In this document: positions 40,376 to 58,842 of the stretch, in pieces
Numbering within the stretch: the first letter of the stretch is position 1
Layout: every line of letters starts with the position of its first letter
Source: a virus
Reading direction: 5' to 3' (one strand)
DNA length: 64,000 bases
IMG/VR virus record: IMGVR_UViG_3300010412_000004
Location: 15,013-79,012 of that record
Made by a program: the position numbers and the translations under genes
Notes under the pieces: model-generated
Told to the model about the DNA's origin: nothing
Seen by the model: only the letters and a program-made list of their open reading frames with translations
The model's database searches: none

Positions 40376-41704
40376 ATGCCAAGAGGTGCTTCCGACATTC
40401 CAGAACTGAGGTTGGAGGTTTTACAGGATTTCATGGAAACCTTCATGACTCCTCCCAACTTCGTTCTGCAAAATATGTTTCCTACTCGTCAATCGCCGTC
40501 GAGTACCATTAAGTGGGAAAGTCGTAGAGGAGGAAGAGGTTTAACACCCTTTGTTCCTCCAGGTGCTCCTGCACCACAGACGGCACCGCTCGGTGTTGCA
40601 CAACATCAAGCGGAGGCGGCATACTGGAAGGAGAAAATGCCGTTCGACGAGGAATTTCTTAATAACCTACGTAGACCAGGTACCACGGTAGAGCATCAGT
40701 CGGCGGAACAAACGCTGGCTGAGAATTTGGCGAGTCTTAAAAATAGGTCTAGTCGTAGAAAAGAGTGGATGTTCGCTCAGATGCTCTTCAATAATGGTTT
40801 CAGCTATAAGGTGAAGCAGGGATATATGGCGTCGGTGGATTATCAAATTCCATCTGTCAACCGTGTAACCCTAGCTAGTGCTCGAAACTGGAACAATGGA
40901 GGTAGTAAAAACATTCTGGAGGACATTCAATCAGGTAAGCAGGTAATTCATGATGCTTGTGGTGCGAAGGTGAATATCGCCCTTTTTAACTCGAGTGTCT
41001 TAAAACTGCTCGCCAACGATTCGGCTATCCAAACCCTTTTGAGAAAGGATGCTTTCGGTCTTGGTAACCTTTATGGTAACCTAGCGGCCAACGTCCACGA
41101 CATCATTGGGGTGAACGCTGCCGTGCTGGGAGCCTTGCTTGATATTGATCAATTCATAGTTTATGATGAGCAGTATGAGATTCAAGCCTGGCTGACCGCC
41201 GCCGTAACAGGCGGATCCACTACCTGGGTTTCAGTTGACTCTTCCCAAGATTTTGAGGCTGGAGGAGTTCTTAAAATCCATGATCAGAGCACTGGTGATT
41301 GGGAGGAAAGGGTAATTCTTTCTGTGAGTCAGGAAACTCAAAGAATCCAGATTGAGTATCCTACCACCTATAATTACCTGCCAGGTCAGGATTTTGTCCG
41401 TATGGCTAAGAAGTACGTCCCGGATGACAAATTCGTGATGATGGCCACACGAGTAGATGGTCAACCCATTGCCCAATACTATGAGGCTCCCTTTGGGAGG
41501 GCTCGTAGATGGGGACAGTATGTGGACCAGAGTGAAGATTGGGATCCTGAAGTTGTTTGGATCCGCGTTCAAGATAAAGGCCTCCCTGTTCTAATGCAGA
41601 GAGATGCCATGTATGTCCTCACGGTGTGGACACCGCCTGAGTTAGCGGCTACGTCAACCACAACCACTACTTCTTCAAGTAGTACGACCACGACCACCGC
41701 GTAA
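40376..41704 (+). CDS. Major capsid protein (lambda E-like) with C-terminal Ser/Thr tail
   Basis: LTPFVPPG, RRKEWMFAQML, VDYQIP, DP..WIRVQ.KGLPV; strong RBS. Confidence 0.88.
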   Translation: MPRGASDIPELRLEVLQDFMETFMTPPNFVLQNMFPTRQSPSSTIKWESRRGGRGLTPFVPPGAPAPQTAPLGVAQHQAEAAYWKEKMPFDEEFLNNLRRPGTTVEHQSAEQTLAENLASLKNRSSRRKEWMFAQMLFNNGFSYKVKQGYMASVDYQIPSVNRVTLASARNWNNGGSKNILEDIQSGKQVIHDACGAKVNIALFNSSVLKLLANDSAIQTLLRKDAFGLGNLYGNLAANVHDIIGVNAAVLGALLDIDQFIVYDEQYEIQAWLTAAVTGGSTTWVSVDSSQDFEAGGVLKIHDQSTGDWEERVILSVSQETQRIQIEYPTTYNYLPGQDFVRMAKKYVPDDKFVMMATRVDGQPIAQYYEAPFGRARRWGQYVDQSEDWDPEVVWIRVQDKGLPVLMQRDAMYVLTVWTPPELAATSTTTTTSSSSTTTTTA

Positions 41705-41732
41705 TAGTGGCTGGTTGGAAGAGGATCAATCG

Positions 41733-41990
41733 ATGAATATCGAAAAGGTAATAATTAAGGTTACACTTAAAGGTGTTTCTAATCAATGGGAAGAAGGGGA
41801 GGTGTTATTTCCTCCCCTTCCCCAGGAAATTTTGCAAGAAATTGACCTAGGTAGGGATACCGTTGAGGTAGTAAAAATGGATGAAATTCCAAATAACATA
41901 ATAGGATTACCTTCAATTACTACCTTAGTAAAAACCAAATCTACTTTGAAAAGAGAGGAAACCCGTATAAAGAGAGTCAGGAGAATGTAA
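41733..41990 (+). CDS. Hypothetical head-associated protein
   Basis: Position after MCP. Confidence 0.5.
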   Translation: MNIEKVIIKVTLKGVSNQWEEGEVLFPPLPQEILQEIDLGRDTVEVVKMDEIPNNIIGLPSITTLVKTKSTLKREETRIKRVRRM

Positions 41991-56686: not shown

Positions 56687-56688
56687 AG

Positions 56689-58842
56689 ATGGCTAAGGCT
56701 TGGATTAGATTTACAGATATTTTTATACCTAAAGATGCCACTATTGTATATGCCTATGTAAAGTTCAAGGCATATGATAGCCAAACGGCATCTCAAATTA
56801 GAGTCACCTGCCATCTTGTAAATGCAGATAATCCTGGAGCACCTGCTGATAAGGCAGAAGTAGATGGATGGAGTTTAACCTCTGGAGTATCCTGGAGTAA
56901 TTTAGCCTCCTGGACAGATGATAAAAACTATAGAACTATCCCTATACAATCCCAACTTCAAACGGTGATTAACAGAGCAGGATGGGTGGCTGGGAATTCG
57001 GTGATAGTAGTGGTTGATGATGGTGGAAGTGCATCTAATTCTCATAGGAAATTTTCGGCGGTCGATTACTCCTCTGGAGGGGAAAAACCTTTTCTTTATG
57101 TAAGTTGGTATTCTGAATGGAGATCTTATTTCAATAATATATACTGGCAACCAGATCATTTGGACACGGCTACACCAATCGAGACGAGTTGGGATCCTTA
57201 TAATAACAGATGGAATTTTAATATAAATGCTAACTCTAATGGAGGTCAATTAAAAGTAAAAGGTAGTTGGAATTGGGAATATCAACCTCAATATATGAAA
57301 CTCTTCCATGATCATCCTGGAGGTACCTACCCTACCTTAGAGATTTTAGATAAGGAAGGGGTCCAAATGGCTTATTCTAGTAGTTATGTATCAGGAACAC
57401 AACTAGAATTAAATTGGTGGATTAATAGACCTGATATGTTTTGGATTAAAATGACACTTCCTCCTGGGGACGATTCTGTATTTCACGTGGAGGAAATTTT
57501 ATTCACAATAACTGAACCTACAGGGCTTACTACAACTTCCACCTATTCTACAACTACCACAACCGTCACTCAAGGATCTACAACCACAAGTGGTTCTACA
57601 ACCACAAGTTCTACCACTACTACCAGTTCTACATCTACTTCTTCTACTACTGTAACCACTGGGTCCACTACTGGATCTACATATACTACAACATCTTCAA
57701 CTACTGTGAGCACCACTACAAGTAGTGCCGCGAGTACTTCTACTTCTCAAAGTAGTACGAGTACGGTATCCACAACTAGTTCAACTGAATCTTCAACTAG
57801 TACCGCATCTACAACTAGTTCAACTGAATCTTCAACTAGTACCTTTAGTACCACCTCTACTACCGAAACGGCAACCACGTCTTATAGCACAACCAGCTCT
57901 ACCACAAGTACTGCATCTACCACAAGTACTGCATCTACCACAAGTACTGCATCTACCACAAGCACCAGTAGTTCTTCAACTAGTACAGTATCTACTGTGA
58001 GCACCTTATCTACCACAAGCACCAGTAGTTCTTCAACTAGTACAGTATCTACTGTGAGCACCTTATCTACCACAAGCACCAGTAGTTCTTCAACTAGTAC
58101 AGTATCTACTGTGAGCACCTTATCTACTACGAGTTCAACTGTTTCCACCACAAGTACAGCATCTACTGTGAGTACCTCTTCTACTACAACATCAAGCTCT
58201 AGTACGGCATCTACTGTGAGTACCTCTTCTACTACAACATCGAGCTCTAGCACCGCGTCCACTACAAGTTCTAGTTCTTCTACAAGTTCTACAGCTTCCT
58301 CTACGAGTACATATTCTACTACTACTAGTTCAGGAAGTACGATATCTACCACATCTTCCACTGCTCCTCTATGTAGCGAGTGGTCGTCTGATCTAACAGG
58401 AGGAAAATCAGCATCGGCGAGTAGTGCGGCTAGTGGGTATCCTGCGTCTAATGCTATAGATAACAATACTAGCTCTACTTGGGAAACAAATAACTTTCCA
58501 TCCTTCCCGGTATGGTGGCAAGTAGATTTTGCCGTTCCAAGAAAGATAGAGAAATATAGATTTAGATGTAGATATGAGACAACTTACACTTGGCAACTCA
58601 GAGGCAGTAGTGTATCTAATTTTGCCACTTATGATGTGGTACATACGGTTACTTCTCAGTCTATGAGTCAATCCACATGGTATGAATGGGAATTCTCTAA
58701 TTCAGGTTCCTATCGTTATTATAGGATTCATATTACTACAGGATCGAGTGTAAGGGAAGGTTGTTATGAAATTGAGATGATGCAATGCCAGGATCATACT
58801 ACAACTACAACCTCAAGTACAACCACAACTACAACGGCCTGA
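56689..58842 (+). CDS. Tail fibre/adhesin-like protein with mucin-like Ser/Thr stalk and F5/8-type-C (discoidin)-like domain
   Basis: About 280-aa S/T tract; ASAS..NAIDNN..W, WWQVDF, YRYYRI; ends TTTTTTA. Confidence 0.75.
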   Translation: MAKAWIRFTDIFIPKDATIVYAYVKFKAYDSQTASQIRVTCHLVNADNPGAPADKAEVDGWSLTSGVSWSNLASWTDDKNYRTIPIQSQLQTVINRAGWVAGNSVIVVVDDGGSASNSHRKFSAVDYSSGGEKPFLYVSWYSEWRSYFNNIYWQPDHLDTATPIETSWDPYNNRWNFNINANSNGGQLKVKGSWNWEYQPQYMKLFHDHPGGTYPTLEILDKEGVQMAYSSSYVSGTQLELNWWINRPDMFWIKMTLPPGDDSVFHVEEILFTITEPTGLTTTSTYSTTTTTVTQGSTTTSGSTTTSSTTTTSSTSTSSTTVTTGSTTGSTYTTTSSTTVSTTTSSAASTSTSQSSTSTVSTTSSTESSTSTASTTSSTESSTSTFSTTSTTETATTSYSTTSSTTSTASTTSTASTTSTASTTSTSSSSTSTVSTVSTLSTTSTSSSSTSTVSTVSTLSTTSTSSSSTSTVSTVSTLSTTSSTVSTTSTASTVSTSSTTTSSSSTASTVSTSSTTTSSSSTASTTSSSSSTSSTASSTSTYSTTTSSGSTISTTSSTAPLCSEWSSDLTGGKSASASSAASGYPASNAIDNNTSSTWETNNFPSFPVWWQVDFAVPRKIEKYRFRCRYETTYTWQLRGSSVSNFATYDVVHTVTSQSMSQSTWYEWEFSNSGSYRYYRIHITTGSSVREGCYEIEMMQCQDHTTTTTSSTTTTTTA
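57772..58255 (+). repeat. Nested tandem repeats in the mucin-like region
   Basis: 18-bp ACCACAAGTACTGCATCT x3 (57901), 60-bp unit x3 (about 57952-58131), 48-bp unit x2, and a further duplication at 57772-57843. Confidence 0.8.

Follow-up and report, generated by a model that had tools for sequence, protein, structure and literature searches.

We analysed a 64,000-nucleotide stretch of phage DNA (the window), which comprises bases 15013-79012 of a 79,012-bp IMG/VR virus record rated 91% complete and linear. Five genes on its plus strand, encoding the major capsid protein, a predicted neck protein, the major tail (tube) protein, a distal tail protein and a fibre-like protein, finish with a tract of Ser/Thr codons, an Ala codon and the stop codon, and a block of putative glycosyltransferase and methyltransferase genes follows the last of them. 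Coordinates are collected in Table 1. All five C-termini are exactly as the original prediction had read them, and a six-frame scan of the window, covering frames of at least 40 residues, found exactly these five open reading frames (ORFs) with such an end and no further frame closing with such a tract. The other runs of six or more Ser/Thr residues in real genes of the window lie inside the fibre gene only. We refer to the terminal tracts as tails or tags, and to the enzyme genes as the module.

Table 1. Positions in the window of the tailed virion genes, their terminal tags, the enzyme genes and other features discussed in the text
Feature	Position	Strand	Details
Major capsid protein	40367-41704	+	C-terminus ...ATSTTTTTSSSSTTTTTA-stop; 445 residues; plausible ATG at 40376
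Capsid tag TSTTTTTSSSSTTTTTA	41651-41701	+	encoded at C-terminus of major capsid protein
Neck protein (predicted)	42439-43116	+	C-terminus ...ATSTTTSSSTSTSTTTTTA-stop; 225 residues
Neck tag TSTTTSSSTSTSTTTTTA	43060-43113	+	encoded at C-terminus of neck protein
Major tail (tube) protein	45406-46032	+	C-terminus ...TTTSTTTTTA-stop; 208 residues
Tube tag TTTSTTTTTA	46000-46029	+	
Distal tail protein	55283-56686	+	C-terminus ...T14-A-stop; 467 residues
Distal tail tag T14-A	56639-56683	+	9-nucleotide tandem repeat at 56639-56679
Fibre-like protein	56689-58842	+	C-terminus ...TTTTTSSTTTTTTA-stop; 717 residues; 46% Ser/Thr
Fibre terminal tag TTTTTSSTTTTTTA	58798-58839	+	internal Ser/Thr repeats at 57547-58360
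Lead GT4-type glycosyltransferase (GT-B fold, from model)	58939-60207	+	PF00534 26.8 bits vs cut-off 26.4 (marginal)
196-residue module protein, function unassigned	60204-60794	+	overlaps genes on both sides
Second GT4-type glycosyltransferase, 380 residues	60791-61933	+	PF00534 26.5 bits; phrog_2170
244-residue module protein, function unassigned	61920-62654	+	
S-adenosylmethionine (SAM)-dependent methyltransferase, 198 residues	62642-63238	+	PF13489 Methyltransf_23 27.4 bits
Predicted GT2-type (GT-A) fold protein, 242 residues	63235-63963	+	last gene before contig end
GT1-like gene	10388-11410	-	PF00534 20 bits (below cut-off)
FolE, QueD and QueE genes	13313-15564	-	7-deazaguanine precursor genes
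148-residue ORF	43355-43801		overlaps start of Neck1-like gene
Neck1-like gene	43770-44288		

The late genes occupy the plus strand from about 31.7 kb, in the order terminase, portal, protease, 231-residue protein, major capsid, neck proteins, tube protein, chaperones, 1733-residue tape measure, four distal tail proteins and transferase block. The portal, the protease, the 231-residue pre-capsid protein, the tape measure and the small neck proteins carry no tag, as the original prediction had stated for internal proteins.

The tracts of this phage are 9-17 residues long, reach 73 residues in relatives with a capsid of the same family, and are usually capped by Ala or Pro. From the capsid gene to the fibre gene, as ordered in Table 1, the final Ala is encoded by GCG, GCT, GCT, GCA and GCC, and the stop codons are TAA, TAG, TAA, TAA and TGA. 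The Thr codons of the tails are mixed (ACC 21, ACA 18, ACT 11, ACG 5) and resemble genome-wide use. The earlier claim that mixed codons set the tails apart from a DNA repeat holds for four of them but not for the T14 tail of the distal tail protein, which is a perfect 9-nucleotide tandem repeat of ACAACAACC in 4.6 copies. Because the repeat is perfect, this tail looks like a recent slippage expansion, and its sequence suggests how new tags may arise. Four of the five tails were matched with zero differences in an independent metagenome run, which is not the likely source of the record and whose contigs are interrupted at the T14 repeat. RNA-library contigs span both the capsid and the tube tail; depth in the contig-based read tables is unsuited to ranking expression.

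The tagged proteins are identified by different routes. The major capsid protein matches the major head protein family phrog_29 with an E-value of 1e-43. The AlphaFold2 model of the 225-residue protein has two beta-barrel domains, with a predicted local distance difference test (pLDDT) score of 80. Residues 1-101 align in VIA-align, at Z 8-10, with stopper/neck proteins of FCWL1, Pam3, Chi, R4C and Douge (gp10), and residues 96-207, also at Z 8-10, with XkdH, SF1141 and a gene transfer agent (GTA) neck protein. Since the best VIA-align matches are all phage stopper/neck proteins, the model supports the assignment as a neck protein. The exhaustive VIA-align search alone was informative, as Foldseek returned mostly generic beta-barrel matches (3C proteases, PilZ). 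The protein seemingly fuses two neck-type beta-barrels, a stopper-like one and one like XkdH and the GTA neck protein, that are usually separate proteins. The tube protein is identified by its position directly upstream of the chaperone pair and the tape measure, and has no Pfam or PHROG match. The distal tail protein carries the domain PF13290 (CHB_HEX_C_1, E-value 2e-18), a carbohydrate-associated domain of the chitobiase/hexosaminidase C-terminal type.

The enzyme module

The original prediction described a six-gene glycosyltransferase and methyltransferase cluster behind the last tagged gene. Within the window the block does consist of two GT4-type genes, one methyltransferase gene, one GT2-like gene and two ORFs without assigned function, but the cluster as a whole exceeds six genes. 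The record ends 37 bases beyond the last transferase gene, and the module resumes on the same strand at the record start with genes for two mucin-like proteins, a protein placed with GT2-family glycosyltransferases by an embedding search, a hexapeptide acyltransferase, a second methyltransferase and a small membrane protein. A further record, G021, holds a contiguous module of lead GT4, GT2-like gene, second GT4, acyltransferase, two methyltransferases and GT2-like gene, directly after three tailed ORFs, and the halves at the two ends of our record therefore form one module.

The two mucin-like proteins (record bases 1-5010) have at least 651 residues, the gene being open at the contig start, and 1016 residues, with Ser/Thr contents of 73% and 62%. 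Both are encoded nearly wholly by 21-nucleotide units that specify the heptad STTTSS[F/Y/L], and their non-repeat ends are short. Their counterpart in the related genome G001 has 1651 residues and is 74% Ser/Thr.

We are confident that the lead gene, the first behind the fibre gene, encodes a GT4-type glycosyltransferase with a predicted GT-B fold. Its AlphaFold2 model consists of two Rossmann-like domains (pLDDT 89.5, predicted template modelling score 0.86), and the top Foldseek matches are BshA, MshA, PimA and WaaG, with E-values down to 2e-14. The EX7E motif lies within ...REESFGLVVPEA..., and its residues E320 and E328 are invariant in 31 sequences. Conserved residues of the N-domain include Y16-T19, D24, Q25, H105, D106, W112 and H134-S138. 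Conservation is 0.70 in the acceptor-side N-domain vs 0.72 in the donor-side C-domain; because the N-domain is conserved as much as the C-domain, the pattern fits a common acceptor in phages with unrelated structural proteins. The lead GT4 has 866 metagenomic homologues, the best 120 of which are 56-70% identical, and identity ranges from 33 to 70% where the module recurs. Neither this enzyme nor the tube protein has a homologue in 50,697 deposited phage genomes.

The 242-residue protein at the end of the block resembles glycosyltransferase family 2 clusters in an Atlas structure search, at template modelling scores of 0.75-0.86. PF00535 occurs in 15-29% of the members of the neighbouring Atlas clusters, and the protein itself has no direct Pfam match. 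For the two GT2-like candidates, tblastn found no homologue in cultured phages. The 196- and 244-residue proteins and the small proteins at record positions 4971-5937 have no PHROG, Pfam or PDB sequence match. None of the module enzymes contains a hydrophobic segment of membrane-spanning strength, and the module holds no flippase and no oligosaccharyltransferase, so that any protein modification by it must be cytoplasmic.

Distribution among related and unrelated phages

A capsid search of IMG/VR returned 49 loci. Relatives whose capsids are 56-69% identical to that of this phage all end in a Ser/Thr tract of 9-73 residues (27 distinct sequences). The untailed capsids comprise ten distant orthologues, which stop at ...LTVT/DVA, and one sister at 55% identity, which ends with the fold. 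Across about 30 related genomes the tails are all-or-none, with the capsid, neck and tube orthologues of a genome either all tailed or all untailed. Tube orthologues end in Ser/Thr tracts in every tailed relative, untailed neck orthologues stop at ...EDTR, the exact start of the tail here, and the portal, protease, 231-residue protein and small neck proteins are never tailed. The tailed genomes form one clade of the capsid tree (support 98/96), with the tail-less L031 as sister and no loss of the tail in the 27 distinct sequences.

The module follows the same division. The four complete tailed genomes (G001-G004) carry the lead GT4 at 51-66% identity together with the second GT4, the methyltransferase, the GT2-like gene and a mucin-like protein. 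A homologue of the 1016-residue mucin-like protein is present in all four and one of the 651-residue protein in two. The 196-residue protein has homologues among relatives in G001 and G003 only, and the 244-residue protein in G001 only. The tail-less genomes G006 (79% complete), G007 and G008 (both complete) have no tailed ORF and no lead GT4, second GT4, GT2-like or mucin-like gene; the sole trace of the module in them is a weak methyltransferase match of 24% identity in G008. Relatives with tails and without transferases, which the original prediction had named as a refuting case, were not found among the complete genomes of the capsid family.

Not every tag is shared within the family. The tags on the 467-residue protein and the fibre are absent in G001-G004, and which of the distal tail proteins is tagged varies between members, so that the tag is portable and is gained repeatedly. 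The tag on the 467-residue protein appears to be a later gain, because the orthologue in G001 is untailed and a tail scan of G001-G004 shows none on its orthologues. The orthologue in L129/L228 is tagged independently. The fibre orthologue of G001 has 1056 residues, 45% of them Ser or Thr, and lacks the terminal tag.

The terminal Ala, which the original prediction had counted as part of the tag, is not fixed, and tails may be capped by A, AP, AA, V, P or nothing. Two unbiased sets show this. Among 57 distinct tails of the capsid family, 28 end in A, 15 in A/P/G combinations and four in V, I or E, and eight are uncapped. The 50 tails at enzyme loci include 17 uncapped ones, 13 that end in A, eight in V and five in AP. 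Thr accounts for 90% of the last five Ser/Thr positions. The constant feature across these sequences is the closing Thr run, with the terminal Ala only a lineage preference.

Tails and module also occur together outside the capsid family. We scanned IMG/VR for Thr6-Ala-TAA, and in-frame C-terminal matches fall in several further kinds of phage. One of them is G040 (86 kb, 91% complete), which has no BLAST similarity to the packaging, head and tail genes of this phage. It carries six module genes at 35-54% identity, the second GT4, methyltransferase and GT2-like gene among them, and it bears tails on a head-tail adaptor (phrog_477) and a tube protein from a different family (PF18906). A tube protein of phrog_807 is tagged in G012, G037 and G041 (55-57% G+C), and a tail protein of phrog_1101 in G019. 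Short-tailed ORFs lie directly beside the enzymes in the fragments G021, G037 and G041.

We then compared loci around the lead enzyme with random loci. A profile of 31 lead-enzyme homologues retrieved 80 viral loci, and the control consisted of 120 random IMG/VR loci (1.0 Mb) drawn by an arbitrary 14-mer. A tailed ORF lies within 10 kb at 36/80 lead-enzyme loci vs 1/120 random loci under a strict definition, and at 41/80 vs 3/120 under a loose one (Fisher p of about 1e-16 to 3e-16, with related loci treated as independent). Only 12/80 loci share structural genes with this phage. Of 58 tailed ORFs on the same strand as the enzyme gene, 55 lie upstream of it, and 16 end no more than 300 nucleotides from its start. 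Downstream of the lead gene are a second GT4 (44/80 loci), a GT2-like gene (43/80) and a methyltransferase (41/80); the 196- and 244-residue proteins are found at 8/80 and 7/80 loci. No tail lies near the enzyme gene in 23 larger enzyme-positive records, and 15 of them contain more distant Thr6 runs, on the strand of the enzyme and many of them C-terminal. Four of these 15 records, 113-277 kb in length (G073-G076, three of them above 140 kb) and with a lead-GT4 homologue at 51% identity, contain 103-162 Thr6 runs each, all on the strand of the enzyme, and many proteins there must therefore bear Thr tracts.

By homology the 125 tailed ORFs group into 39 families, and they match 38 PHROG families. 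Among the 25 PHROG families listed, 17 have a name, and all 17 are virion or virion-assembly proteins; they include four major-head families, head decoration, three major-tail families, tube, tail and fibre. The phages that bear the module have 36-57% G+C and come from marine sediment, mangrove and soil.

Two loci may be described individually. The densest tagging observed is at L263:2-8555, in a 95-kb record, where a lead-enzyme homologue (48% identity) has five successive ORFs upstream of it, each ending in a T14-16 tract that closes with SS, ST or no cap. The sole tailed random locus is L361:549-6026, where three ORFs end in ...TTTTTTAP, one of them just before the tape measure gene, at the tube position, and one just after. 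Its record is 30% complete, and no lead-enzyme homologue is visible in it.

Interpretation of the tails and alternative explanations

The tags and the module are, in our judgement, very probably linked in function. We further consider it likely that the late module of this phage O-glycosylates its virion proteins in the cytoplasm, with the tails as acceptor tags. The portable C-terminal acceptor tag proposed in the original prediction is supported in that the tails track the cluster, recur in unrelated backbones and are enriched beside it; glycosylation and methylation of the glycan are steps that we infer.

In the proposed mechanism the soluble lead GT4, our candidate for the enzyme that adds the first sugar, would transfer it from a host nucleotide-sugar to Thr/Ser hydroxyls of the disordered tails during synthesis, and would probably also act on the long Ser/Thr repeats of the fibre and the two mucin-like proteins. 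The second GT4 and the two GT2-like candidates may then extend the glycan, and the two methyltransferases and the hexapeptide acyltransferase may decorate it, the methyltransferase within the window presumably methylating a glycan sugar. Known tube and capsid proteins suggest that the C-termini point outward, in which case a mucin-like glycan brush would cover head, neck, tail and fibres. New tags could arise by slippage of ACN repeats ahead of a stop codon, as the T14 tail partly shows, and so easy an origin would account for the variety of virion proteins tagged from one lineage to the next.

We also lean, with less assurance, towards a broader reading in which the tails and the GT4-led module constitute a mobile glyco-tagging kit common to environmental tailed phages of many lineages. 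The module would recognise any C-terminal Thr run, so that a few ACN codons would recruit a virion protein into the sugar coat, and virion glycosylation would be widespread in sediments and soils and unrelated to animal immunity.

Several points weigh against glycosylation of the tails by the module. The complete genomes G085 and G087, which have a distant homologue of the lead enzyme (35-37% identity), contain no Thr6 run. Conversely, a lead-enzyme homologue is missing from some records that have just one Thr-tailed ORF, among them the complete provirus G039, which contains no gene of the GT1 or GT2 family. In the capsid family, one and the same branch acquired the tails, the module and the entire set of distal-tail genes, so that the comparison within that family amounts to a single event, and the enrichment statistic counts related loci as independent. 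Structural neighbours of the lead enzyme, BshA and MshA, glycosylate small molecules and not proteins. Finally, the phage is uncultured, and the deposited phage genomes hold no homologue of its lead enzyme or tube protein.

In an alternative reading, the tails are unmodified, disordered, hydrophilic bristles that serve hydration or prevent sticking to sediment, and the module acts on other targets, such as envelope glycolipids of the host or polysaccharide precursors at the inner membrane face. GT4 enzymes free of membrane segments often use lipid or small-molecule acceptors, and BshA, MshA and PimA are the closest solved folds; Thr-tailed ORFs in records without the lead enzyme are also as such bristles would have it, and the gain of the module together with a new distal-tail gene set in the capsid family could reflect a link to the host surface. 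Bristles leave unexplained, however, why module and tails recur in unrelated backbones without those distal-tail genes, why tailed ORFs lie directly upstream of the lead enzyme gene, and why tail-less relatives lack the module, which moreover has no membrane-embedded transferase, flippase or polymerase. We regard this explanation as unlikely.

The module might instead glycosylate only very long Ser/Thr repeats, those of the two mucin-like proteins and the fibre, with the short tails serving another purpose such as docking mucin-like strands. The mucin-like genes do lie inside the module, each of the four tailed relatives has a homologue of the 1016-residue protein, and serine-rich repeat adhesins are the classic case of long repeats that are O-glycosylated in the cytoplasm. 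Yet no mucin-like homologue was found within 10 kb of the lead enzyme at the 80 loci by BLAST, the low-complexity filter of which may hide repeats, and the short-tailed ORFs of G021, G037 and G041 adjoin the enzymes directly. An enzyme able to use poly-Ser/Thr repeats should, moreover, also use this sequence where it forms a free C-terminus. Restriction to the long repeats therefore seems quite improbable to us.

It is very improbable that the late transferases glycosylate hypermodified DNA of the phage and not protein. Phage transferases that add sugars to DNA bases are well known, and the window does contain the 7-deazaguanine precursor genes FolE, QueD and QueE. These DNA-modification genes, however, lie on the opposite strand and have a GT1-like gene of their own, which is also found in the tail-less G007, a genome without the late module, and therefore belongs to a separate transferase system. 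The late module sits in the structural operon behind the fibre gene and tracks protein tails, not DNA-modification genes. The GT1-like gene lies beside a radical SAM gene, near FolE, QueD and QueE, and its homologues are in G001 as well as G007.

A chance origin of the tails as low-complexity ends or assembly artefacts, to which only the T14 tail lends itself as a perfect short tandem repeat where independent assemblies break, is refuted by the six-frame scan (5/5 tails on virion proteins, none elsewhere), by the four tails recovered without differences in the independent run, by tails kept in relatives with cores 56-69% identical, and by their presence at just 1/120 random loci. Sorting signals, processing like that of ribosomally synthesized and post-translationally modified peptides, and ester cross-links were considered and dropped, since there is no matching enzyme and no signal peptide or membrane anchor.

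In many uncultured phages of sediments and soils, the tails, an easily recognised sequence signature, predict the conserved enzyme module and are predicted by it. If the tails are glycosylated as proposed, sugar coats would be common on environmental phages, with possible effects on particle adsorption, protease resistance and host recognition, and might bear on missing C-terminal peptides in viral metaproteomics. Together, tag and lead enzyme would then be a compact cytoplasmic pair for sequence-directed O-glycosylation, of potential use in bacteria for the glycoengineering of proteins and phage particles. The claim is testable with synthetic genes, and an isolate is unnecessary.

Known glycosylation systems and genome context

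We found no description of such Thr-rich virion tails in the literature. To our knowledge, glycosylated phage particles have been shown only for mycobacteriophages. Freeman et al. 2023 reportedly found that in these, Che8, Corndog and Myrna among them, phage transferases attach O-glycans close to the ends of capsid and tube subunits, at their C-termini, and are reported to have seen little sign of virion glycosylation elsewhere.

The resemblance to phages such as Che8 and Corndog lies in soluble, phage-encoded glycosyltransferases, represented here by two GT4-type genes and two GT2-like candidates, in C-terminal sites on capsid and tube, which in our phage are candidate sites at the extreme ends, and in an expected glycan layer on head and tail, which for our phage is conditional on the proposed mechanism. 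Corndog has an O-methyltransferase and transferases within its structural operon (PMC4351075), and the mycobacteriophage virion-glycosylation work of Freeman et al. 2023 is cited in PMC11256854. The acceptors differ: capsid and tube close with ...KTGS and ...SDGS in Che8 and with ...PLVGS and ...IKGDS in Corndog, each with a single terminal Ser and not with a Ser/Thr tract. The enzymes differ as well: Che8 gp108-110 and Corndog gp35-38 gave no significant BLASTP match to any module protein, and phmmer found none for the Che8 set. Here the neck, the distal tail and the fibre are tagged too, and giant mucin-like proteins accompany the module. Our phages are uncultured and come from sediment, mangrove and soil, whereas Che8 and Corndog are actinobacteriophages, and glycosylation has been demonstrated experimentally in mycobacteriophages, whereas here we infer it. 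The principle of phage transferases acting on capsid and tube C-termini is thus known, and the acceptor, the enzymes, the set of tagged parts, the mucin-like proteins and the habitat are different.

The closest analogue in mechanism would be the cytoplasmic glycosylation of serine-rich repeat adhesins in Gram-positive bacteria. In that GtfA/GtfB system a GT4-type enzyme places the first sugar on long Ser/Thr repeats in the cytoplasm; other soluble transferases then lengthen the glycan, which an acetyltransferase decorates. The mucin-like proteins of our phage resemble such substrates; the proposed substrates differ, however, in being virion proteins that are never exported. GtfA is absent among the PDB sequence matches and Foldseek hits listed for the lead GT4, to which it was not compared directly. 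We found no GtfB-like partner, and no SecA2/SecY2-like gene among the annotated ORFs, a set from which many ORFs of the record are left out. Chloroviruses and mimiviruses likewise encode soluble transferases and methyltransferases with which they decorate their structural proteins, in capsids and fibrils, bypassing the secretory pathways of the host. They differ in having eukaryotic hosts, other enzyme families, N-linked sites (in chloroviruses) and no terminal poly-Thr tag. O-antigen glucosylation of the GtrABC type relies on a membrane-embedded GtrA flippase and a GtrC-type transferase, in contrast to module enzymes without a membrane-spanning segment.

Elsewhere in the window, the minus strand carries genes up to about 31.5 kb, including those for replication and 7-deazaguanine synthesis. 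A scan for promoters and terminators at the junction of the fibre and lead GT4 genes performed no better than chance. Behind the neck gene is a 240-bp gap that is otherwise unexplained apart from the 148-residue ORF listed in Table 1, which has a homologue in G008 only; whether this ORF is a real gene may be doubted. The capsid protein has matches of only 25% identity, to a Sulfurimonas phage and a faecal phage. In species genomes, homologues of the lead enzyme occur on two short contigs of metagenome-assembled genomes labelled Brocadiaceae and Proteobacteria, which are probably binned phage DNA. The phage itself was detected in metagenomes of marine sediment, mangrove and soil from seven studies.

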